Positions 10,331 to 57,485 of a stretch of 64,000 bases of DNA are shown here, in pieces. Position 1 is the first letter of the stretch. Each line of letters begins with the position of its first letter. The translations under genes and the position numbers were made by a program. Where the stretch lies: NCBI RefSeq assembly GCF_006345805.1, contig NC_043000.1, positions 88,226,001 through 88,290,000 on the forward strand, read 5' to 3'. The notes under the pieces are model-generated. The model had not been told where the DNA came from, searched no databases, and worked only from the letters and a program-made list of their open reading frames with translations. This stretch comes from Octopus sinensis. Its lineage: Eukaryota.

Positions 10331-11160
10331 CAACTGCCACAGAAGTGTCAATACACAACTTTATTCTTATCTCCACGGATTCTCGTTGTCAGCACTCCAT
10401 ACACTCCTCCATTCCTTTATTCCTTAATACGTTTCTCTCTTAACCTCATCTTTCTTTTCATTTCGTTCTTTTTCCAATTTTCTCTAAACTTCTCCTTTAC
10501 TTGTCACCTCCCTTTCCCTGCCTGTCCTTCTAGTATTGTCTTTTCTTCTCCTTCTATATGTACATCCCCCTCTCTTTAAACATAACTTTCTAGCCTCTAC
10601 CAGCAATTTAGTTGCATGCACTTCAACTCTATCCAGATTTGTCCTCCTGTCAGGAAAATAACTCATCGATCCTCACCTATGTGCAACTGCCACTACGCTA
10701 TTAGAATTTAATTATTAAATGCTGCTTTTCAAAAATGTTATATCCCTGTCCAAAAGGAATGGGGTGAAATGTTCTTCAGCAGCTATATTTACTCTTTTCT
10801 GAGAGCATAAGTCTGTTGAGCCTATGTGAAAATTGAAGTAAGTAATAATTTCTTACTACGAAAGTCATATGTTGTGCATGTACATATATACATGTGTGTA
10901 TACGTATATACATACATGCATATATACATTTAATCATACATGTATATACACATACATGTGTGAGTTTAGATGTAAATGCGTATATATATAGAATGGTTGT
11001 ATACTGTCAATCTAACATGAACGTGACAGTAGGCGGGGTACACCCCCACTGTTTAGCCCTAGGAAGCATCGACATCTCCAGATGACTTTGACACATTTTT
11101 CCTGTGTCCTTATATACATTTACGAAGGGGAGACAAATACCCCCAGCCGCCAGGGCTGCA

Positions 11161-11207
11161 TCTAGAGACACGTGTGTTTCAGGAACATTGTCCTTCGTCG
11201 GTCTAGA
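11161..11207 (-). ncRNA. Minimal type I hammerhead ribozyme (CCGACGA core variant)
   Basis: Minus strand: tctaga CCGACGA agga-caatgt-tcct GAAA cacacgtg TC tctaga; stems I, II and III all pair; GUC triplet. Confidence 0.7.
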
Positions 11208-11234
11208 CTAGCAGACGCCGGTCAGCTGTTGATA

Positions 11235-12842
11235 AAATCTTTATTATGGGCACGAAGGCCCGAATTAAGAGGGAACATTACAACAGACATGGGGTACATA
11301 TAACAACAAAAAAATCGAAAAATATGAAATGAAAATGAATTATTTATAATGAATTAAATGAATGGCTTACGAGCCCCCCAAAACTCGCAGTTTCATTTAA
11401 AATACAGTTCTGCTATACTGGTCGTTCATCTGTCATATATTCTATTAAGCTCTCCTGATCCACAATAGTTGGTAAAGTGTCATAACGTACATATAACCAT
11501 TCACATATACTATAATCATATCTCATTTTCTGCACTGTCTCTTTCTCCACGATTACCACCTTCCACTGGTCATCATATATTTCTGGGTTCAACTTTACTC
11601 TAACCAAACCTTTCCTACCTGCCAACATCTTTTCCGTATTTTTGTCCTTGTCGTATAACATTACCACTTTATGTTTCTTTCCCTTGGGTCTTCCTCCTCT
11701 CTTACAAACTTTCAACTGCTCTTCCACTCTTCTGTCCCATTCTTCCTCTGCTGTTAGTTTTACCGGTTCACTCACTTCCGCTTTTATATCCTCTTCGCAT
11801 GTTCGATTTTCCCTCTCGTCAGTAATCTTGTTTTTCGCTTTTTTCTTCTTTTTTTTTTGTTCTTTAGGTGGTGATTCCACACGCATTCTTTTTCTATTTT
11901 CTTTCTCCAACTCTTCACCACTTTCCACATTATCCGTAGTGACGATTTCCTCCTCCACACACGCATCTTGCAACTCATTCGTTAAAGTCTCCAGGGCTAT
12001 CGTCTTCTCCAGCACTTCTCCCAGCGGACACACATCCTTCATGTGGCCTCTTATTTTGCATTTGTAACACACTGGGGGTCTCCACTCCACCACGACTCTA
12101 AGACGTGTCTCGTCGGGGAACACCAACTCCTCCGGGATGTTATAGAGGTCTGGCATAGTAATGTGGACCAATGCCTGCACCGCATAACTCCACCACTTTA
12201 CTTCTGTTGACCTTTCCACCTTCAACACCTCAACGCTTTCCTTGCAGTTGAAAACCACTGCCGCTAGAATCCTCTCCATGTTAAGCTCCGGCGAAATCCT
12301 ACCGATTCGTATTCTTACTGCCCTCTTTCCGCAGTAACTTGGTAGTAACGTCCATCTTTCAGATTTCAAAATTTTCGTGGCATTCCTTCTCGCTTCATCT
12401 TCATTTTTAAAATGGACGACCACTGTAGCGTATTTTCTACCTCTATTATAGGAGGTAGCTTCGCCTTCAATTTCCTGCAGACATTTTTCTATTTCCTCCG
12501 TCTCTGCCACTTCTATTTTCTTTGAAGCTACGCTCCACGTTCTGTACGTAATCATACGTTTCTCCGCTTCTTTTGCTTCTTCTTCAGGCGGTGTGACTCT
12601 CACACAGTCACCTTCCTTCTTCAAGCTGTCGAAATATTTTTCCAAAGTCTCTTTCTCGACTACCACTTCTTCCAGCTGTAGTTCACTCGCAGCCAGGCTC
12701 CTGCCTGCCGCTCCCGCATACGTCTGGGCTTGCATTTTCGAAAATTCACCACGCCGCAACGGCTTCCACCAATGAACTCGAACTCACAACCTCGACACAA
12801 CAATAACGCAATCAAAAATATCCGACACCAAATTAAACAAAA
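11235..12842 (-). mobile_element. ORF1-only (HAL1-like) non-autonomous non-LTR retroelement, 1608 bp
   Basis: 17 bp TSD ccggtca(g/c)ctgttgata at 11218-11234 and 12843-12859; ~110 nt 5' UTR, one ORF, ~180 nt 3' UTR with AATAAA (11240-11245, minus); no RT or endonuclease. Confidence 0.85.
11413..12759 (-). CDS. LINE ORF1p/gag-like RNA-binding protein with CCHC zinc knuckle (L1/Tx1-like)
   Basis: Uninterrupted 448 aa ORF (first ATG at 12735, MQAQTYAGAAG); RRM-like segments; RPPVCYKCKIRGHMKDVCP = CX2CX4HX4C; acidic linker; KKKKKKAK basic patch. Confidence 0.85.
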   Translation of the reverse strand: MRRGEFSKMQAQTYAGAAGRSLAASELQLEEVVVEKETLEKYFDSLKKEGDCVRVTPPEEEAKEAEKRMITYRTWSVASKKIEVAETEEIEKCLQEIEGEATSYNRGRKYATVVVHFKNEDEARRNATKILKSERWTLLPSYCGKRAVRIRIGRISPELNMERILAAVVFNCKESVEVLKVERSTEVKWWSYAVQALVHITMPDLYNIPEELVFPDETRLRVVVEWRPPVCYKCKIRGHMKDVCPLGEVLEKTIALETLTNELQDACVEEEIVTTDNVESGEELEKENRKRMRVESPPKEQKKKKKKAKNKITDERENRTCEEDIKAEVSEPVKLTAEEEWDRRVEEQLKVCKRGGRPKGKKHKVVMLYDKDKNTEKMLAGRKGLVRVKLNPEIYDDQWKVVIVEKETVQKMRYDYSICEWLYVRYDTLPTIVDQESLIEYMTDERPV

Positions 12843-13161
12843 CCGGTCACCTGTTGATATCTGCCTCGACTCGTAATGTATATATCTAATTTCAGTGAAG
12901 TTTATTCACTGATTATCAAAATCAGAAATACTAAATTTCTAAATCTCTCGTAGAGACATGTACGGTGGTGGGGCGATAGAATGGTTGTATACTGTCAATC
13001 TAACATGAACGTGACAGTAGGTGGGGGGGGGTACATATCTCTACGAGAGATTTAGAAATTTGGTATTTCTGATTTTGATAATCAGTGAATAAACTTCACT
13101 GAAGTTAGATATATACATTACGAGTCGAGGCAGATATCAACAGTTGACCGGCGTCTGCTAG

Positions 13162-13209
13162 TCTAGACGGACGAAGAACAATGATCCTGAAAACACGCGT
13201 GTCTCTAGA
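13162..13209 (+). ncRNA. Hammerhead ribozyme, inverted copy of 11161-11207 (degenerate core)
   Basis: tctaga CGGACGA agaacaatgatcct GAAA acacgcgtg TC tctaga. Confidence 0.55.
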
Positions 13210-13438
13210 TGCAGCCCTAGCGGCTAGGGGTATCTGTCTCCCCTTCGTAAATGTATATAAGGACATTGGAAGAATGTGTCAAAGCCATCAGGAGGCGTCG
13301 ATGCTTCCTAGGGCTAAACAGCGGGGGTGTACCCCCCCTATTATCACGTTCATGTTAGATTGACAGTAAGTATACAACCATTCTATCGCCCCACAACCGT
13401 ATATGTCTCTACGAGAGATTTAGAAATTTAGTATTTCT

Positions 13439-13523
<85 letters not shown>

Positions 13524-21394: not shown

Positions 21395-22374
21395 AAAATA
21401 CTCGCATATGCTAAAAAGATATATTTTGATGTGTTCGTGGCGAGTGCATTATGATTAGGTGAGAAATATCCTATTTCCCATTTTTGTAGAGGAAATACCT
21501 TTCTTATTTTAAAGTAAAACTTGAAGACTATAACAAAGTCTAGGACTCACTATATCTTATGCAAAACATGTGCGAGTACAGCTTAACGATCATTGTAAAT
21601 CGTGGGTTCCTATAGTTTATGAAAAACATGCATGAGTAATTTGAAGCAAGGGCCTAATGGAAAGAGAATTGCTTAAAATTTGTAGTTTCAGTAATTTGAG
21701 GTTAAAAAAAAAGAAACGGAAATATTACGATGATTGTTGTTTTTGTTTTGTCAGCTTTAAGGGCATCAATTGACATAATTGGCACTAGTAAGAAGGTTGT
21801 GTGGACGCCCCTAGACGATGAAGTAAACTACGTATATAGAGGTAGAAGTCTAGACGTCGAGAAGAAGAGTCAAGTTGAGTAAGGGTCTCACTTAAAAATC
21901 ATCGAGCAAATGTGAACAGAACTAAAGAGAAGAGTTCGTCAGAAGAAACCACGCAGTCTTGAAGAGTTGTGGGAGCTAAGTCAGTGAAAATCGCATCTCT
22001 TACCTGTGAAAGTGGTGAAGGATTTGTACGCATCTCTTCCCAAGCGCATTGATGCAATTATTCAATCTAACGGAAGCCACACGAAATATTAACAAAGCAC
22101 AGTAACTTCTTGAAATGGACATTAAGTAATACATTTTCATCATACATATATTTATATATAAATATACATATACTTTTTTTGTATATACAGGTGTGGCTGT
22201 ATGGTAAGTAGCTTGCTTACCAACTACACGGTTCCGTGTTCAATCCCACTGCATGGCACCTTAGGAAAGTGCCTTCTACTATAGCCTTGGGCCGACCAAA
22301 ACCTTGTGAGTGGATTTGGTAGACGGAAACTGAGAGAAGCCTGTCGTATATATATATATAAATATATATATGTA

Positions 22375-22412
<38 letters not shown>

Positions 22413-22710
22413 TGAAACTACAAATTTTAAGCAATTCTCTTTCCATTAGGCCCTTGCTTCAAATTACACATGCATGTTTTTCATAAACTATAGGAGGCCA
22501 CGATTTACAATGATCGTTAAGCTGTACTCGTGCATGTTTTGCATAAGATATAGTGAGTCCTAGACTTTGTTATGGTCTTCAAGTTTTACTTTAAAATAAG
22601 AAAGGTATTTCCTCTACAAAAATGGGAAATAGGATATTTCTCACCTAATCATAGTGTACTCGCCACGAACACATCAAAAGATATCTTTTTAGCATATATG
22701 CGAGTATTTT
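21395..22710. repeat. ~297 bp inverted repeat pair (21395-21690 / 22413-22710)
   Basis: aaaatactcgcatatg...ttaaaatttgtagtttca versus tgaaactacaaattttaa...catatatgcgagtatttt; only a few substitutions. Confidence 0.9.
21886..22092 (+). pseudogene. Tc1-family transposase C-terminal fragment
   Basis: SHLKIIEQM*TELKRRVRQKKPRSLEELWELSQ*...KDLYASLPKRIDAIIQSNGSHTKY* matches the Tc1 pattern (SPDLNPIE..W...SMP.R..AVI...G..TKY). Confidence 0.85.
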
Positions 22711-24362: not shown

Positions 24363-24402
24363 GTACGACACGTTTCGACCCTTTCGGGGTCTCTGCGGGT
24401 AC
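24363..24402 (-). ncRNA. Degenerate minimal hammerhead ribozyme
   Basis: gtac CCGCAGA gaccc-cgaaa-gggtc GAAA cgtg TC gtac. Confidence 0.5.
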
Positions 24403-24902: not shown

Positions 24903-24981
<79 letters not shown>

Positions 24982-25011
24982 GCGAGAAAGAAGCAACAAG
25001 AATGGATAGGT

Positions 25012-25101
25012 TTTTAGTACGATCGTTTCATACAAGGACAGGTTTTATTAAAGTTGCAAAGATTACAGCATATAAACGAGTCCCGTACTCATCAGCTAAA
25101 A
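25012..25101 (-). ncRNA. Type I hammerhead ribozyme with long stem II insert
   Basis: ttttag CTGATGA gtacgggac...gtccttgtat GAAA cgatcg TA ctaaaa; palindromic stem III, GUA triplet. Confidence 0.75.
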
Positions 25102-25796
25102 TACATGTAAGTTCTCTAGACATCCTAGTGTTTGAGGCTATACTCATAAGTATGTAGATAATTAAACAGATTTCTAAAGTTCATTAAAGTTCTTTAAGAT
25201 GATGTACAGTCTTATCACAGAATTTTAAAAAAGTTTTGATAGCATCACAGAGAAGGTGACCTAATCCATATGAATTTCCATAGATATGATGAGGGTTATA
25301 TACTCACAGAAGACAAATTTATCCATTGTTAATTAACACGAGGTGGGTCTCAATTCCTGCTTATTAGCATTACAGAGAGGGTGAATTAATCATTTGATAT
25401 ATGCACAGATTCCATGGTGTAGATGTAATTTCCAGAGAAATGGAGATGAATTTCATATTCACAGGCGATAAATTTTACAATGGTTGAACACAATGAGGTA
25501 GGTATCAATCCTTGTTATATGATTAGGTGTTTGCCACATTAATCACATTACTGCTATTCACAAGAGGCTGTAGCTATTTGTCTTCTGTGAGTATATAATC
25601 CCTCATCATATCTATGGAAATTCATATGGATTAGGTCACCTTCTCTGTGATGCTATCAAAACTTTTTTAAAATTCTGTGATAAGACTGTACATCATCTTT
25701 AAAGAACTTTAATGAACTTTAGAAATCTGTTTAATTATCTACATTACTTCATGAGTATAGCCTCAAACACTAGGATGTCTAGAGAACTTACATGTA

Positions 25797-25886
25797 TTTT
25801 AGCTGATGAGTATGGGACTCGTTTTATGCTGTAATCTTTGCAACTTTTAATAAAACCTGTCCTTGTATGAAACGATCGTACTAAAA
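25797..25886 (+). ncRNA. Type I hammerhead ribozyme with long stem II insert
   Basis: ttttag CTGATGA gtatgggac...gtccttgtat GAAA cgatcg TA ctaaaa. Confidence 0.75.
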
Positions 25887-26409
25887 CCCTATCATTCTTG
25901 TGCTTCTTTCTCGCTTATAATCACCCCACATTACTGTATTGTTAAATCAGATAGTTTTTTTTTTTGGTGCATCTAAGTTAGGTACCATATTCAAGTAAAT
26001 TTTTAAATTAACTTGAATCTTTATTGCTCTTTGAATATAATATATATATATATATTATATATATATATATATATATAATATATATATATATATAACATAT
26101 ACACGCTCACACACGCACAGTCAATATATGGGTATATACATACAAATATATACATGTATACGCCCACGTATGGACGAATACATACATATATGCGCCTGTA
26201 TTTTGCTTTACGTACGAATATATGTACATATTTACATATGATATGTACGTATATTTATGTATATATACGCGTGTGTACCTGCATATATGAGTTTCTATGC
26301 ATATACATGTATGTACTCGGTTATACGTTTACTTATGCGCGTATATCTAGTTTTATGTATAAACCCATGTAATTGGATGTGCGTGTGTGAGCGTGTATGT
26401 ATATGTGCG

Positions 26410-27184: not shown

Positions 27185-27311
27185 ATATGTAAAATACAAA
27201 CTGGGACAAGAACGCAAAACATTTAGGAGACGATACAAAAAACACGGACGGGACATTCGAAGCCTTCAATCTTCAGTCAAGAACCGGATCATCCTTGCAA
27301 TTTCGGCTGAT
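26443..27311. repeat. Element with ~120 bp terminal direct repeats (26443-26563 / 27191-27311)
   Basis: aaaatacaaactgggacaaga.cgcaaaa...gacgggacattcgaagccttcaatct.cagtcaagaaccggatcatcct.gcaatttcggctga occurs twice, ~748 bp apart, each after (TA)n. Confidence 0.8.
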
Positions 27312-27536
27312 GTGCATCTAAGCACAAACACATAAGCAATTTCCTTTCTCTTAACAGTTACAACAGCGAAAGCTCATTACGTCATTTTCTCTAAACAAGA
27401 ATGTATAATTTTCCCGTTCATATTTGAATTTTTTGCGTTACAATTTTTCTCATTTTTTTTACTTATTCTCGAAGTTGATGGACATATAGCGGTACGTAAA
27501 ACAACCAGAAAATCTCTCGTAAAACATTTTATTGGT

Positions 27537-27578
27537 GTACCCGAAGAAAGCTAGAACAGGTCGAAACATGTGTCATGC
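27537..27578 (+). ncRNA. Degenerate hammerhead ribozyme, inverted partner of 24363-24402
   Basis: gtac CCGAAGA aagctagaacaggtc GAAA catgtg TC atgc. Confidence 0.45.
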
Positions 27579-41125: not shown

Positions 41126-43349
41126 AGTATGTATCTAAGTATGAATGAATGACTGATGATAGTTGAAATTATTTTCTTAAAACGTACAAAGCAATGTATA
41201 AAACTGGAAAGAGTTCATAAGATGGACCACATGGAGAAGCAACATTGATATCATCAATGATTAATAGCCAGGATTATTAGCCACAATCACAAAACAATCG
41301 GGAAAAGAATCTACTTGTTAGATACTGGATGACGATTAAAAATTCATGGCACACAATATATTTCTTTTAGCTTTCTCTCGTAAAGATTAAAAGTTGTTGT
41401 TATGACTTCCAAGAAACACATAAGTGTATAGTGAAAAAAAGATTTGCACTTGCTGAGTAAAGTGTGCGCGCGCGTGTATGTATGGACGTGTGCACGTGGG
41501 TGTGTGCATGCGCGTGTGTATGCTGTCTGTGTCAAACTGCTTATGTATTCCAAGGAGATTAGAGGTTTGAAGATATTCTGTCTGCTGATTGATTTGATTG
41601 TGCGACAGTCTTAGTGAAATCTATAAAACCTCCGATTTACTGACTTACAGTCTCCTGTTTAAAGAATTTGTTCGCAAGGTAATAATATCGCTACTGCTGT
41701 CTATAGACACTTAAGAAAGAATATGATAGAACATCATCAACTGACGACACTGAATATTTTCTATTATTTTGGTGGAGCAGCTATTACGACACATCATATC
41801 TACTAAATCTAAACCCTAAAAGATTAAGAAAAGTTTGACAAATTTAGTTTAGTCTGAAGCGTTTGACAGAATTAGAAACATGCATTTGATGGTGAAATAT
41901 ATGTCCTGGGTAAAACATTATCGAATATGCAATTACTTTTCCATATTTAACTCTGAAATTATTAATATGTGAAATTGATAACTATTAGGAGTTATGCGAA
42001 CCAAGTATTTCAATAAAAGTTTACTAGACTATACTTTCAAATTAACAATGCACTTAACTGCATGTTTTCATGCAGAAAACACCCTTGGGGAAAATTTTCC
42101 AATGCCGTTAATTTGCATTGCCATCTCAGCGAAATAGTTTACCATGAAACCTATATGCACATCAAAGTCAGTCTATGATCTGTCAGCTTTGTATTTAATA
42201 CTCTTCGCCGAGGAGGCTTAATAAGACCGAAACGTAAACTTATCACTGTTCCAACCAAAATTTAGGCTTTCGTCTTTATATAAATTTTGGTCAATTAAAA
42301 TTTTAGATTACCTTCGAGTGATACTTTGAAGATGAATATGCATGAAAGCTATTGATATATGGCATTTTGTTAAATAAAGTTTTCATTTTAATTGATTAAA
42401 TGTGATTTTCTACTGTAGAAGTCTGTACTTAACCATATGTTTTTCACGTAGAAAATACTCTTGGAAAATTCTTCATTAGATATCTTTGTATTTACTACAC
42501 AATTTTCATGAAAGATGCTGCTGTCTTTACAAGAAATAAACTAATAAAATACACCGAATAAAATACAAAGAAATAAACTAATAAAAACGAAAGTAAACCT
42601 AATGATAAAACGTTAATAATGATTACCGATGTATTTTCACTGAAATAACAAAGCTGTAGACAACAAAATTAGTCTCTGATAGATGTCAGAAGAAATAGCG
42701 TTCTTTGCAATGTTTAAATGAAAAGATAAATATTGAACTGAAATAATGGATGAATGACGGCTGCATGCGATGAATTACATCTGCTTCCTCTAATATAACA
42801 TGAATCTGCTTTCAATACTGACAATCCGACACACTAAACGGTGCTAGCTGCTAAGCCAGACATATTACTTTACTGATGCCATTGAACCTTGTATATACAT
42901 TAAGTAAAAAAATAAACAAACGTTTAGATAATTGTCTTCATGACTTGTTGATTTACAGAGTTCAAACTTACATATCGATATTTCCTATTCAGAGAAACTG
43001 TTTATAATTGTAGAAATTTGAATAGAGGATCAATGCAGTATAAATGCAGTAATAATTACACTTTTATCACAATACAAAATTATAATATATTAAGAAATTG
43101 TTGTATAGACTTAATTTTATATCGATAAGCACTAGTTGAAACAATCTAATATGTAATTTTAAATAATACCTTTGTATATAGGGGCTTTCTATCAATTTTT
43201 ATTGTCCTTAGGCATATTTTTGTACGAATGGAAGTGTAATTTTGTGGTAGGCCCCATATGTTTGCACCCAAGCAAGGGTTGATATATCGACAAGGTTAAT
43301 AATATTAAAAATATAACAACAACAACAACAATAATAATAATAATAATAA

Positions 43350-44220
43350 TGGTTAATGGCTTTTGGCTTAAAATCAGAAACAGAAAGGTTTATCATAGCA
43401 GCCGAAGATCAATGCCTACCTACAAGGAACTACCAGGTCAACATATTAAAGAACGGCAGCTGCCCAACACATCGTGTATGTCAACAACAAAATAAAACCA
43501 TTGATAATATTGTTTCCATGTGCAGTCTTCTTGCGCCTACAGAGTATCTCAACAGGCATGATAGAGCTGCACAATATGTTCACTGGGTAATTTGCAAAAA
43601 CCTGGACCTACTCCATGATAAGAACTCTTGGGAACACAACCCAGCTTGAAAATGATCACACCTCACTCCTCTGGAACTTCATCGTTCAAACTGACAGAAA
43701 GACAGATTCAAATAATCCAGACATTATATTGAAAGACTTCAAACAAAAATCATACCTACTCATTGATATGACTGTCCCATTCGATATAAATGTATCTGTA
43801 AAGACCTACCAAAAACTGAGCAAGTATAAAGATCTTGAAATAGAAATTAACAAAATGTGCAACCTGAAGACTAAAACAATGCCTGTTGTCATAGGTGCCC
43901 TAGGAATGAGAGCAAAAGGGGCTAACTGCTACCTAGCTCAGATAGCAGGAAACCCAAAAATGGCAGAAATTCAAAACATAGTGCTCTTGGGAACTGCCCA
44001 TATCCTACGTAAAATACTGTCTATGTAATCTCAGATTTGAAAACACACCCATAATTTTCTTGTCTTTTCTTGAACATTCTCTAGAACAATACTATATACA
44101 AAACCAAATATATGACATCCTCGGCATAACACCAACATGAACTTCTAACTTGTTGTCTCTTGAGGTCTCTGGGTGAGACTTGGATCCAACTTGTACAAAT
44201 ACAAAGCAAAATTCAAACAT
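43350..44220 (+). mobile_element. 5'-truncated Dong/R4 LINE in (TAA)n
   Basis: ORFs 43356-43649 and 43615-44028: LKSETERFIIAAEDQCLPTRNY, degenerate CCHC, RHDRAAQYVHW, NNPDII..D...IDMTVP.D.N...K..KLSKYKDL (RLE); (TAA)n on both sides. Confidence 0.92.
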
Positions 44221-44256
44221 ATAATAATAATAATAATGATAATAATAATAATAATA

Positions 44257-48903: not shown

Positions 48904-49472
48904 ATATATATATGTACGCACAAACATACACATGCGTGCTTCCATTCAAACACACGCACACACACGCACTCTCACATAAGTTCATACACACGTGTGCTTG
49001 CGCACACAGTCGTATCTTTGGCCACACACGTCTCCAGTCGTTTCCGGCCTTCCGGTTAGTCCAACATGTTGTAACTGTTAATTCAGACATTCCTTTCTCT
49101 CGATTTATTTTGTTTTTCTTTCCTGTAAAAGAGCGTCGGCTCGAAGCGTTAAAGTCTTCTCCCATTTTTCCTGAGCTATACACGAATACAGCCTGTTTGT
49201 TGTTCTTTCATCTGTCAGTGGTTTTGTTTACTTTTGAACCATAGATTCATATGTACATATGTATGTATGCATGCGTGGCGCCTTGGTCAATTATATATAT
49301 ATATATCGTGACGTATTTTTGCCATTTCAATATGACTAACCCCTAAGGGTGGATGCTACTGTAGTTTTTAGCCCCAGGAGGACACACTCCTCCAGCTGGC
49401 CATAGACACACTTTCTGTGTCCTGTCAGTATTTGCAAAGGGAAGTCATCCTTCCCGTCTTCAACTTATGATA

Positions 49473-49517
49473 CACACGGACTCGAGTTTCGAGGTATTGA
49501 CCTCTCGTCAGCGTGTG
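49473..49517 (-). ncRNA. Canonical minimal type I hammerhead ribozyme
   Basis: cacacg CTGACGA gaggt-caat-acctc GAAA ctcgag TC cgtgtg; intact core, palindromic stem III, GUC triplet. Confidence 0.9.
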
Positions 49518-49825
49518 ACAATCATAGTTGTCGCCGAGAATTAGATTTCCTTCACAAATACTTATACTTTTTCCAGCGCCCACTGTCGCTGATATTGAAA
49601 GAGTGAAATCAAACAATGATAAATATCAAAGTGAGTTATATACAGTAGCGGTAACCCATCGTGACGTATTTTTGCCATTTCAATATGGCTAACCCCTAAG
49701 GGTGGATGCTACTGTAGTTTTTAGCCCCAGGAGGACACACTCCTCCAGCTGGCCATAGACACACTTTCTGTGTCCTGTCAGTATTTGCAAAGGGAAGTCA
49801 TCCTTCCCGTCTTCAACTTATGATA

Positions 49826-49870
49826 CACACGGACTCGAGTTTCGAGGTATTGACCTCTCGTCAGCGTGTG
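49826..49870 (-). ncRNA. Canonical minimal type I hammerhead ribozyme (copy 2)
   Basis: Identical to 49473-49517. Confidence 0.9.
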
Positions 49871-49920
49871 ACAATCATAGTTGTCGCCGAGAATTAGATT
49901 TCCTTCACAAATACATGATA

Positions 49921-49965
49921 CACACGGACTCTAGTTTCGAGGTATTGACCTCTCGTCAGCGTGTG
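49921..49965 (-). ncRNA. Hammerhead ribozyme (copy 3, inside the 95 bp duplication)
   Basis: Same motif with stem III loop variant ctagag. Confidence 0.8.
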
Positions 49966-50272
49966 ACAATCATAGTTGTCGCCGAGAATTAGATTTCCTT
50001 CACAAATACTTATACTTTTTCCAGCGCCCACTGTCGCTGATATTGAAAAAGTGAAATCAAACAATGATAAATATCAAAGTGAGTTATATCAGTAGCGGTA
50101 ACACATCGTGACGTATTTTTGCCATTTCAATATGGCTAACCCCTAAGGGTGGATGCTACTGTAGTTTTTAGCCCCAGGAGGACACACTTCTCCAGCTGGC
50201 CATAGACACACTTTCTGTGTCCTGTCAGTATTTGCAAAGGGAAGTCATCCTTCCCGTCTTCAACTTATGATA

Positions 50273-50317
50273 CACACAGACTCAAGTTTCGAGGTATTGA
50301 CCTCTCGTCAGCGTGTG
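50273..50317 (-). ncRNA. Hammerhead ribozyme (copy 4)
   Basis: Same motif with two C>T changes at CpG sites on the ribozyme strand (cttgag TC tgtgtg). Confidence 0.8.
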
Positions 50318-50439
50318 ACAATCATAGTTGTCGCCGAGAATTAGATTTCCTTCACAAATACTTATACTTTATATATATATATATAAATATATATATATAT
50401 ACATATATATATATACATATATATATACATATATATATC

Positions 50440-50731: not shown

Positions 50732-50797
<66 letters not shown>

Positions 50798-50985
50798 CAA
50801 TATAGGATGAAGTCCCTTACTCTACAGCAAAGGAATTCATCAGGAAGCGTGGGCAGTATATTTAAAAAAACCGTTACGGTTGCACACTAAAGGCGGTGCT
50901 CCAGCATAGCCGTAGTCAAATGACTGACACAAGTAAGAGAATAAAAAAATATATATGTATATATATCTATGTCTCTCGCTCTCTT

Positions 50986-51060
<75 letters not shown>

Positions 51061-51170
51061 AGCAATATAGGATGAAGTCCCTTACTCTACAGCAAAGGAA
51101 TTCATCAGGAAGCGTGGCAGTATATTTAAAAAAACCGTTACGGTTGCAATATACATCATATAACGAAATT

Positions 51171-51230
51171 TCTACTGAAGAAGGAATATATCTTTTTATA
51201 AGATTAAGTCCGAAATTGATTCAATATAGA
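51171..51230 (+). ncRNA. Type I hammerhead-like motif
   Basis: tcta CTGAAGA agga...atctt.ttta.taagat...tcc GAAA ttgattcaa TA taga. Confidence 0.6.
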
Positions 51231-51363
51231 GATAACGAAATTTAAATTTTCTAAAGGTTAGTTGCCCGTTTTCAGTTTCAATTTTCCTGTAACAAGCGGA
51301 TTATAAGTGGATAAAACAGTGTATTTGGCTTTAGAATAACCCTCTTTAGCCCTTAATTATATG

Positions 51364-51399
<36 letters not shown>

Positions 51400-51731
51400 A
51401 TGTGTAAGTAAATTTGTATACATATATGTCTGTGTGCATGTGTGAATACGCACTAAAGTGTATATACATACACATAAATGCAATTATGCATAAACACACA
51501 TGCACATACATATATATATTATATATATATATATATATATAAGCAATATAGGATGAAGTCCCTTACTCTACAGCAAAGGAATTCATCAGGAAGCGTGGGC
51601 AGTATATTTAAAAAAACCGTTACGGTTGCACACTAAAGGCGGTGCTCCAGCATAGCCGTAGTCAAATGACTGACACAAGTAAGAGAATAAAAAAATATAT
51701 ATGTATATATATCTATGTCTCTCGCTCTCTT

Positions 51732-51805
<74 letters not shown>

Positions 51806-51914
51806 AGCAATATAGGATGAAGTCCTTACTCTACAGCAAAGGAATTCATCAGGAAGCGTGGCAGTATATTTAAAAAAACCGTTACGGTTGCAATATACAT
51901 CATATAACGAAATT

Positions 51915-51974
51915 TCTACTGAAGAAGGAATATATCTTTTTATAAGATTAAGTCCGAAATTGATTCAATATAGA
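51915..51974 (+). ncRNA. Type I hammerhead-like motif (duplicate of 51171-51230)
   Basis: Identical sequence in the duplicated block. Confidence 0.6.
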
Positions 51975-52106
51975 GATAACGAAATTTAAATTTTCTAAAG
52001 GTTAGTTGCCCGTTTTCAGTTTCAATTTTCCTGTAACAAGCGGATTATAAGTGGATAAAACAGTGTATTTGCTTTAGAATAACCCTCTTTAGCCCTTAAT
52101 TATATG

Positions 52107-52144
<38 letters not shown>

Positions 52145-52247
52145 ATGTGTAAGTAAATTTGTATACATATATGTCTGTGTGCATGTGTGAATACGCACTA
52201 AAGTGTATATACATACACATAAATGCAATTATGCATAAACACACATG

Positions 52248-52280
<33 letters not shown>

Positions 52281-54388: not shown

Positions 54389-56556
54389 TATTTTCTCCTG
54401 AATTGTTTCGTATTGAAGCACACACACAAGGAATTTTGTTCAATTGGCGAAATGTAACAGGTATGAACTATGAGCACTCAATTTTGTCTACCACAAAAAC
54501 TCCGGCTGGACTGCAACTGAAAAATATGCTGCTGAATATCCCTATCAAATGCTAGAAGTGATCTCTCCTTGAGAGAGTGGATATAAATTAAAATAGAAAG
54601 TGCTAAAGCAAAAAAATTGGCATCAGTTGAAAAACATTTAATTTCAATAGAGAATATAAATATAGTGAAGAGTAGCTAGAGCAAAAAGATATTCTCTTAA
54701 AGCTGTTTCTAGAATAGCCAAGCATGTGGATTATGATATTGGGAAAGCATTCCATAAATTAAATATACCGTCATCGGAGAGAGAGAAATCAGAAAATGTA
54801 GAAATGAAGAATATCCCCAATCGAGGATATTAGTACTTTCCAGTTCGTCGGGGAATGAAGGATCAGAATGAAAAGTATATGCGTTTTAAGAAATAATAGA
54901 GTTATAGATAAAGTTCATTAGCTGTTCCATAAATGAAGATTCGATAATAATCCATGGCAAAGGATAATGGAAGCTACTAGTTCCATTTTTGAATAGTGTG
55001 TGAATAAGGACTGAGTTGGAATATCTACTAAAGTATGAAGGAAAGATTGAATGGTAGATGCATGAGTGGATAGAGCCTAGTGAGAGCATGTTTGGTGAAA
55101 GAGGTTATGGGATATATACACGCATACAGATAGATAAGGGATGAAAAATTGCAGATGTCAGATAGTCTCATCTCATGTCTGACCACCAGTATTGGCCAGA
55201 GTCATTAGAGTGGGTGGGAGGGGTTAGGTTAGTAATAATGTGGTTGTAAAAGACAATGAAGTTCTCGAATTGCAGCCACAACTACAGGGATCGTAATTAC
55301 GACTTGCGGTGAGGAGAGATTTAGGGCTCATCCGGTTACGATGTCGCTAGATACAGATGCAAATAATGTTAAGATTTTAAAACTTGTAGTGTTAGTGAGA
55401 GTGTATGATCGTAGGGAATAGATGAATAAAAGTAGTTTTAAAATTTTTTAAATGAAAAAACCCATTTTTACTAAGTTATACAGGAGTGAAATTATAGGGC
55501 CCAGGAATGAAACAAATATAGCAATAATGGATAATAGATTTATGAATAAATCAGTGAAGAAATCTGGTAATTTAAATTAGTCATATATATTTTTATACCA
55601 ATTGTTTAACTCTATAACCATGAGAAGAGAAGGTCTAGAGGTGTTCATTTAATAGCATTAGTGTTGCAAATATTATAATCTAGGTGGGATGCATAAATAT
55701 GAATTAAGGAAAAATGAGAATCTATAAAATAAAACAATAAAATGGACATGATAATAATGTAGCTATGCTGATTTAATTAAGTCAGCTCGTACGATATTTA
55801 ACCTATATATCAGTGAGAATCAGAGGTGGTTGTTTTACCGCGATTAGATTTATGATAAAATGAAAATTATTTAAAGATTTTGGGAACATACAAAGAAAAG
55901 ATTTTGTGTTGCTTATTTAATAATTGCATAGGGTTATGTGATAGGATTTCTATACATTCCCTCAAGCATAACCAAGACGAGGTATTTTCTTCTTGATATG
56001 GAGGACCTGCGTCAATGAATGACCAAAGTATATTATGTGGCTTCGTCTTTTTCTAAAGGTAGTGTACATGTTCCGCGAAACAAATAGATCTACTATGTTT
56101 TTCATATTTAAATGAGTTTAAATGCACAAAATATCTTTGCTTAAAACTGACAGTAGCTTCAGTATAAACCTTGGTGGGGTTTTGGAGTATATTAAGAACC
56201 GTGCTCTTTAAAAGTACATCAAGACTAGCTATGAGCTCCTAACCGGTAGTTATTCCAATTATTTTGAGTTACAATTGGCTCTAATTGGTTTAGGAATTTC
56301 CCGCTAAGTGAATTACAGAATGCATAATTAGAGGATGTATGATGGTCTAAGCTAGTTCCTTCTGATCCGTTCTTCGCACAGTCATTGTTTCCGATGATAT
56401 ATGTACTGTTATTATAGGTACTGCTGATTGGAAACAGAGAGATTGTTGACTCATGGGAGAGATTAAGTGTAGCGTCATTGTTGCGGTTTGTAGTATAAAC
56501 CCTGTTTTTGTAAATTGTACTACTGATGTTGTCGCTATTATTATTTTTATTATTAA

Positions 56557-57485
56557 ATGTTTGACTTTTGCTTTGCATTTGTACAAGTTGGTTCCAAGTT
56601 TCGCCCAGAGACCTCAAGAGACAACAAGTTAGAAGTTCATGTTGGTGTTATGCCTAGAGTGCCATATATTTGGTTTTGTACATAGCGTTGTTCTAGAGAA
56701 GGTTTAAGAAACCATACGAAAATTGTGTTTGTTTTAAAATTTGAGATTACATAGACAGTATTTTACGTAGCATAGGGGCAGTTCCCATGAGCACTATCTT
56801 GCTAATTTCTATTTCAAGATCTTTATACTTGCTCAGTTTTTGGTAGGTCTTGACACATACGTTTATATCGATTGGGACAGTCATATCAATGAGGAGGCAT
56901 GATTTTGTCTGAAGGCTTTCAATATGATGGCTGGCCTATTTGCATCTATCTTTCTGTCAGTTTGAATGGTGAAGTTCCAGAGGAGTGAGATGTGAACATT
57001 TTCAAGCACTGGGGGTGGTTTGTGTTCCAACGAGTTTTTATCATGGGGCAAGTCCAGGTTTTTGCAAATTACCCAGTGAATATATTGTGCAGCTCTATCA
57101 TGCCTGTTGAGATACTATGTAGGCGCAAGAAGACTACACATAGAGACAACATGATCAATGGTTTCATTTTGTTGTTGACATACACGACATATTGAGAGCT
57201 GCCGTTTTTTAATATGTTGATCTGATAGTTCCTTGTAGGCAGGCATTGATCTTGGACTGCCATGATAAACCCTTCTGTTTCTGATTTTAAGCCAGAAGCC
57301 AGTAGCCATTGATAGGTAGGGGCTTTGTCTACACCGGCATTATTCGCTCTCCTTGGGTATTTCCCATTGAGAGGTTTTTCTTACCATTTATCAGTCAGAA
57401 TATCTAAGGCAGCGATTTTAGCACGGGCTTTCATGCGCTTAGCTTTTTCTGCACTTGTTTCTAGTACGACTCATTCTGGAATGTG

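Follow-up and report, generated by a model that had tools for sequence, protein, structure and literature searches.

Which element drives the spread of animal retrozymes, and how does it recognise their RNA? This question is raised by a locus of Octopus sinensis in which two families of hammerhead-bearing repeats, here called A and B, share a module of predicted RNA structure downstream of the ribozyme motif. Both lie in the stretch of 64,000 nt that was analysed as a whole (the window, to whose first letter all positions refer). Tandem type I hammerhead repeats of such size are classed as non-LTR retrozymes (PMC7229834), which resemble the pseudo-LTRs of Penelope-like elements and have been proposed to derive from them (10.64898/2026.07.22.740005). 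According to a review, animal retrozymes have no conserved motif that would point to their driver (PMC7761336). Penelope-like elements, in turn, are marked by tandem and inverted copies, tails and a bias towards (TA)n (PMC8557442), and only one of their proteins is described as having been studied in vitro (PMC11167929). In the anole element PAc, the RNA required for activity is confined to +20 to +172; the hammerhead cuts at +26, reverse transcription starts at +111-118, and extension takes place on both strands (PMC11167929).

The hammerhead-bearing repeats of the window

The surroundings of the repeats are AT-rich, with abundant microsatellites. Family B consists of tandem 353-nt monomers with a type I hammerhead each (Table 1), which fits the size range of non-LTR retrozymes (~150-400 nt). 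Each of its four hammerhead motifs combines a canonical core with a full set of stems, but their scores on the Rfam model Hammerhead_1 (26-32 bits) stay below the gathering score of 34; at gathering level, Rfam has no match anywhere in the window. The tandem layout recurs in public contigs, with a joint that goes back 353 nt in sequencing runs X10 and X12. No Pfam match was obtained in the frames over the array, and a search for tRNA genes found none. The sole open reading frame at the A and B repeats belongs to a secondary insertion with a flanking duplication, and the repeats themselves are without coding region or LTR. As judged from its sequence, family B has the features of a non-LTR retrozyme, with putative self-cleavage and circular RNA. 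A recent tandem duplication of ~745 nt, whose copies are 99% alike, adjoins the array (50761-52277).

Table 1. Features of the family A and family B repeats, with positions in the window
Feature	Positions	Strand	Remarks
Family A left copy, ribozyme-to-3'-end part	10988..11234	-	3' end at 10988, 64 nt beyond the module, abutting (TA)n
Module, A-left	11052..11108	-	hairpin 1 intact, hairpin 2 damaged
Hammerhead motif, A-left	11161..11207	-	core CCGACGA (U4C variant); no Rfam match
1.6-kb insertion in minus-strand A copy	11235..12842	-	17-nt flanking duplication with one mismatch (11218-11234, 12843-12859)
5' part of minus-strand A copy	12843..13030	-	head-to-head with A-right at ~13030/13031
Family A right copy	13031..13440	+	1.1 monomers of ~368 nt; abuts (TA)n 122 nt beyond the module
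Decayed hammerhead motif, A-right	13162..13209	+	core CGGACGA, extra A
Module, A-right	13262..13318	+	hairpin 1 damaged, the other two helices intact
Family B array	49305..50370	-	about three 353-nt monomers with an internal duplication of 95 nt; flanked on either side by (TA)n; 3' terminus 49305
Predicted domain, cut site to 3' end, B	49307..49478	-	predicted pairing of its two ends (first 9 nt, last 10 nt) at probability 0.87-0.99
Module, B last monomer	49367..49421	-	hairpin 1 49405-49421; lower stem 49398-49401 with 49370-49373; hairpin 2 49377-49393
Upstream hairpin hp0	49439..49455	-	can also form in A-left; followed by a conserved AAAT stretch
Type I hammerhead motif, B	49473..49517	-	canonical core; predicted cut after 49479; 32.2 bits (gathering score 34)
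Module, B middle monomer	49720..49774	-	reference copy for the alignment of public contigs
Type I hammerhead motif, B	49826..49870	-	32.2 bits
Hammerhead motif within the 95-nt duplication, B	49921..49965	-	without module downstream
Module, B first monomer	50167..50221	-	one hairpin-2 pair broken
Type I hammerhead motif, B	50273..50317	-	26.2 bits

The family A locus is a head-to-head pair with both 3' ends facing outward, into (TA)n, and neither of its hammerhead cores has an Rfam hammerhead match. A C in place of U at core position 4 is found in the left copy (11201), in both copies of a third family, C, described below (27541 and 24398), and at 7-19% of the depth of contigs aligned to family B (49863). 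The U4C core is perhaps tolerated and overlooked in standard searches; it reduces hammerhead activity in vitro, yet sufficed in a viroid (PMC3088659).

The 1.6-kb insertion just upstream of the family A hammerhead holds only a 440-aa frame with a CCHC knuckle (ORF 11416-12735, minus strand). The encoded protein, which we take to resemble a LINE ORF1, has 355 relatives at E up to 0.001; among the 27 of them that were scanned, 14 carry a CCHC family and none (0/27) a reverse transcriptase, and a word-index protein search with the same frame gave no match. The insertion is possibly an ORF1-only element, with the repeat perhaps as its target.

A preliminary description of this DNA had noted similar monomer lengths in A and B, which the values of 353 nt and ~368 nt bear out, and had called the hammerhead stems unrelated. 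Stems I and II indeed differ in sequence, but the families are homologous along the monomer. The A/B alignment beats the shuffled controls against which the description had proposed to hold it, so that this check leaves the proposal standing: the local alignment scores 188 against a shuffle maximum of 145 (0/2000), on the same strand only, and global identity is 59%, as compared to 53% for shuffles. When hammerhead and module are left out, 9 of 3000 shuffles score as high, and the single segments are weak (spacer 56/3000, linker 117-146/3000, tail 492-800/3000). Moreover, A-like linker letters, as read by eye, occur in the loose ends of B-aligned contigs, including those of X10, and these contigs appear as intermediates that bridge A and B. 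Because the monomers align beyond the module and such intermediates exist, A and B can be regarded, at the level of sequence, as related families of short repeats with a hammerhead that have diverged from each other.

A predicted three-helix module downstream of the hammerhead

The hairpin letters quoted in the preliminary description are present at their places, and a shared pattern, written from the copies themselves, has five matches in the window and none in 100 shuffles. The distance from the end of stem I to the module is 51 nt in B and 52 nt in either A copy, in agreement with the ~51-52 nt given earlier, and the module starts 57-58 nt from the predicted cut site. In its predicted shape, hairpin 1 is followed by a lower stem (RGCC with GGCU) that encloses hairpin 2. 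This lower stem is a third helix, absent from the earlier two-hairpin description, and the GGGCTAAA tail noted there is mostly one of its arms. The tail is also less fixed than it had seemed, with C at its seventh letter in 66-72% of contig depth (X2, X3). When folded separately, the B and A-right modules adopt the same three-helix shape (z -4.1 and -3.3), and the A-left module shows a weaker fold (z -1.4), with hairpin 2 paired differently. The predicted stability is higher on the ribozyme strand than on the opposite one, both in B (-26.7 vs -19.5 kcal/mol) and in A-right (-20.5 vs -13.9 kcal/mol). Further hairpins, one upstream and one downstream of the module, can form in B and A-left. A covariance-model search of the window revealed no further full copy of the module, and over the module itself Rfam gave no match even with E up to 10.

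Insertion ends and the region beyond the cut site

The 3' end of the insertion lies 62 nt past the module in B, 64 nt in A-left and 122 nt in A-right, and the B and A-left ends fall 174-179 nt after the predicted cut. Among the loose ends listed for the public contigs, TA-rich ones at 49661 were seen in 29 contigs of run X2 and 45 of run X3. This marks the (TA)n target as a family trait, along with the position of the 3' end. Taken together, the repeats show a Penelope-type layout, with a partial tandem, a head-to-head inverted copy, 5' truncation and a microsatellite target.

The module occupies nt 58-112 after the cut and is followed by the end at a distance of ~60 nt; by analogy with the anole element, this position leads us to read it as a loading signal. 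Our tentative view, in which belief and doubt are almost balanced with doubt slightly the heavier, is that the module is a predicted three-helix RNA structure, likely serving as a loading signal for the reverse transcriptase of a Penelope-like element, by which the repeats are likely copied. Speaking against a loading signal are the 122-nt spacing in A-right, the (TA)n end of family C, which has no module, and the lack of a partner in the frames scanned. In addition, reverse transcription starts 85-92 nt after the cut in PAc, as against ends at 174-179 nt here.

It is also conceivable, if rather unlikely, that the module is a selected RNA but no signal for reverse transcriptase, acting instead as a folding scaffold or host-protein site that blocks or frees the hammerhead, aids ligation or stabilises the circle. 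In B, the sequence after the cut is predicted to pair with the 3'-end region in a closing helix that competes with hammerhead stem I and is the stronger of the two (-8.6 vs -8.0 kcal/mol), and a divergent contig retains this helix with a bulge change and two pair-keeping changes. In line with such a role, retrozyme circles are predicted to be highly self-paired, with the hammerhead thought to be blocked in vivo (PMC7229834), and a protein bound to newt satellite 2 RNA has been reported (PMC2837043). However, A-right has no such closing helix and A-left only a weak one (4 pairs, probability 0.74), and sequence-only A/B alignments keep 0-4 of its 7-9 pairs, which weakens the idea that it is common to both families. 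Moreover, a scaffold alone leaves the matching distance of 62-64 nt to the insertion end unexplained.

Pairing in the module between families and among public contigs

The module had originally been termed covarying. For A and B alone, the data do not sustain this term: hairpin 1 is identical in B and A-left and, therefore, uninformative, and the family A module quoted at the time is a composite that takes one hairpin from each copy, the first from A-left and the second from A-right, with the other hairpin damaged in each. Pairing was assessed by placing the predicted structure of B on sequence-only A/B alignments under three gap settings. Of the 16-18 module pairs, 14-16 survive between A and B, and double changes number 0-3 according to the gap costs. 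Compared to randomly placed changes, this corresponds to p 0.0006-0.016 over the three settings (at default gap costs, 15/17 pairs kept in each A copy, p 0.001-0.002), and compared to random letters at the same columns to p 0.03-0.21, so that strict covariation between A and B does not reach significance. The modules are identical at 42-43/57 positions; with an overall identity of 59%, a best 57-nt window this similar has p 0.15, and the module does not stand out by this measure. Aligned with the A modules, the B module gains scores of 58-61, whereas shuffles peak at 38-40 (0/2000). Two copies in the window break hairpin-2 pair 5.

The stretch is present in 20 of the 24 sequencing runs listed, under eight organism labels, and no RNA run is among those listed as carrying it. 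Contigs from 4 of these 24 runs (4677 from X2, 3539 from X3, 29 from X10 and 4 from X12) were aligned at 80% likeness on 49540-49914, with variants left unphased. Among the rows listed, module differences of at least 4% in X2 and X3 affect an unpaired place (49721, 66-72%) and the loops (49766, 15-18%; deletion at 49739, 20-50%). Two further differences among these rows break the two outermost pairs (49755, 7-13%; 49757, 9-23%), and two keep a pair, changing A-U to G-U at 49773 (67-68%) and G-U to A-U at 49754 (59-69%). Among the loose ends listed, read by eye, hairpin-2 pair 4 is G-U, as in A. Pair 5 is A-U instead of G-C in the loose-end consensus of 12 X2 contigs and in one X12 contig of depth under 5, again as read by eye, and the same low-depth X12 contig has G-C for A-U in hairpin 1. 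In X10, 21 of the 29 contigs are under 90% alike, and depth reaches 127-223 over 49722-49773, as compared to 13-28 in most other bins. With loops that vary and common stem changes that keep pairs, the contig variants are supportive of a putative conserved pairing.

A neutral history, in which the hairpins are simply inherited from a common ancestor and their apparent conservation reflects a G+C-rich stretch picked post hoc, would agree with the p-values obtained for the best window and for the same-column null. In addition, around one half of single transitions would by chance leave a Watson-Crick pair standing as G-U. Nevertheless, we consider this history improbable, given that loop length and letters change and stems stay, that the double change at hairpin-2 pair 5 appears in two runs, that in X10, a diverged run, it is the module that can still be recognised and that z values of -3 to -4 are reached in two families.

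A possible role of the module as DNA

Among the roles suggested earlier was that of a promoter; no Pol III or other promoter consensus is common to A and B exactly. A broader form of this idea holds that the module acts as DNA, either as an internal promoter or as a site bound by protein, and points to a word resembling an octamer shortly before hairpin 1. Such a word, the one-mismatch octamer TTGCAAAT, lies ~8 nt upstream of hairpin 1 in B, and an AAAT is kept in A and in the loose ends of X10; newt satellite 2, moreover, has an snRNA-type promoter. Nonetheless, the A box, B box and octamer are exactly matched in neither family, their one-mismatch matches fall at non-homologous places, and the common stem changes keep G-U on the ribozyme strand, a signature of RNA. 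According to a review, retrozymes also seem to be without promoters (PMC7761336). We attach only a small probability to a DNA site. Derivation from a tRNA-type SINE was rejected, with no exact A or B box on either strand of either monomer and no tRNA. A bacterial promoter scan remained at chance level and is irrelevant here.

Range of the module and search for a partner element

A third, hammerhead-like family, C, is represented by copies at 27541-27574 (plus strand) and 24363-24402 (minus strand) that are 88% alike, with the cores CCGAAGA and CCGCAGA and no Rfam hammerhead match. A tRNA-type SINE, accompanied by a 16-nt duplication (27604, 27854), interrupts the plus-strand copy; if this insert is left out, the copy reaches its (TA)n end 164 nt beyond the predicted cut. 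No module-like region was detected in family C, for which 1977 and 1779 of 2000 shuffles score as high against the A/B domain. Because this hammerhead-like family is without the module, the module is lineage-specific. The superfamily proposed in the preliminary description therefore holds in the sense of one lineage derived from a common monomer and fails in its wider sense, since family C lies in the same window without a similar region. On the 5' side of a family C copy, a CTGAAGA half core stands inverted (27190-27330, minus strand), again head-to-head. An 8-letter word at ~27642 lies within the reversed SINE tail and was dismissed as coincidence.

Matches to the module pattern in viral (2 + 21), metagenome (24) and prokaryote (1) loci are attributable to chance, with a hammerhead upstream in 0/26 and 0/22 of them and at most 8.5 bits in the covariance model; these collections hold little animal DNA, and the range among animals is not bounded by this 0/48. 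That unrelated hammerhead repeats gained a portable module by recombination or convergence, which would then mark a wide superfamily, is very improbable: the differing stems I and II and the individually weak outside segments would suit it, but these segments together beat shuffles, the spacings are collinear, intermediates exist, family C has no module and even the pattern matches, from collections poor in animal DNA, have no hammerhead upstream.

The search for a partner returned no Penelope reverse transcriptase or GIY-YIG family in the 128 of 205 candidate frames that were scanned. The module is absent from the published cephalopod Naiad consensus sequences, and its exact words do not occur in the PMC8557442 supplement. 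Matches of 10 letters in Naiad_Adux and Naiad-3_Chem fall in another hairpin and are no more than chance would give in 584 kb, so a Naiad link was discarded. The same holds for a Naiad-derived origin, as B has canonical hammerhead cores and cephalopod Naiad ends differ. In that supplement, the 5' ends of Naiad_Adux (squid) and Naiad-3_Chem (cnidarian) have in common a short G+C hairpin with a CTAA loop that is unlike the module. Hammerhead-bearing Neptune or Hydra families remain candidates for the driver.

Several other repeats were observed in the window. An inverted pair at 24977-25318 and 25576-25919 (97% alike, (TA)n flanks) contains the half core CTGATGAG followed by a hairpin, without GAAA, and its layout resembles a Penelope-type inverted end. 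A second inverted pair (21395-21690 and 22413-22710; ~295 nt, 96% alike), with a 720-nt interior that includes a SINE piece, is like a MITE or a decayed DNA transposon. Finally, LINE fragments with a restriction-like endonuclease motif lie next to (TAA)n in inverted orientation (43348-44241, plus strand; 56536-57310, minus strand; 88% alike); there is a weak zf-RVT match at 57118-57339, and the fragments are presumably Dong/R4-like.

Relation to known systems

Like the animal non-LTR retrozymes described previously (Cervera and de la Pena 2020, PMC7229834; Li, Clavereau and Pollet 2026), the repeats comprise non-coding tandem monomers with one type I hammerhead each, and they share with them a very high copy number and the lack of a coding region of their own; in size they match the mussel retrozyme families (~350-390 bp). 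Unlike known animal retrozymes, they possess a structured motif outside the hammerhead that is tied to the insertion end, as well as variant CCGANGA cores. With the pseudo-LTRs of EN+ Penelope-like elements (Penelope/Poseidon, Neptune, Hydra; PMC4209133, PMC8557442), they have in common a type I hammerhead located towards the 3' end, copies in partial tandem, a head-to-head inverted and 5'-truncated copy and two alternative 3' ends; a (TA)n target is listed for a Hydra family, and a microsatellite bias is noted for Neptune. In contrast to those pseudo-LTRs, no frame for reverse transcriptase or GIY-YIG is attached in the window, and the A ends differ by ~52-58 nt rather than by a 30-40-bp tail.

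The closest parallel for the proposed function is Poseidon PAc (Frangieh et al. 2024, PMC11167929), in which the hammerhead is likewise followed by an RNA region, there needed for target-primed reverse transcription, and targets are AT-rich. The PAc region lies in the start of the ORF, with reverse transcription starting in an AC-rich stem-loop, whereas the region here is non-coding, and the two were compared by description rather than sequence. Cephalopod Naiad elements show a similar (TA)n preference and tandem as well as inverted copies (PMC8557442), but according to the same source they are without canonical hammerheads and persist in cephalopods as inactive remnants; their consensus ends do not show the module. 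The literature covered contains no description of the module or of octopus retrozymes; Repbase, Dfam and several supplements, which may hold such families, were outside its scope. The word 'ribozyme' is absent from the main text of two cephalopod repeat papers (PMC13282606, PMC8967140).

Implications

Of the earlier proposal of a conserved structured RNA element, the RNA structure on the ribozyme strand is supported by our results, and among the functions then listed, recognition by a reverse transcriptase fits best, as we infer. Our best reading is that A and B constitute a new lineage of non-LTR retrozymes in which the module is a selected RNA structure. It is tempting to speculate how such repeats might spread. 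By the precedent of published retrozymes, read-through transcripts would self-cleave to monomers of ~353-368 nt, which would perhaps be circularised. A Penelope-like protein could then bind the folded stretch that runs from the cut site to the 3' end, and once (TA)n is nicked, reverse transcription would start ~60 nt downstream of the module. Running round the circle or along a multimer might produce the more-than-unit copies, and priming on both strands might produce the head-to-head A locus. A stronger version, in which the module is the template-recognition and start-site signal of a (TA)n-targeting Penelope-like reverse transcriptase, tags a lineage that includes the CCGANGA cores and names the driver, is possible but doubtful.

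Collectively, the module is a real and probably selected RNA fold in one Penelope-type retrozyme lineage, ordinary in kind. It bears on the question of what drives animal retrozymes and how they are recognised. As a fold conserved between families that are only ~59% alike, at a set distance from the end, it offers a probe for the partner pseudo-LTR and a target for mutagenesis. Should it be only a lineage-specific scaffold, it would make a modest addition to a known class; if the reading as a signal for reverse transcriptase is true, it would be the first recognisable such signal for animal retrozymes.
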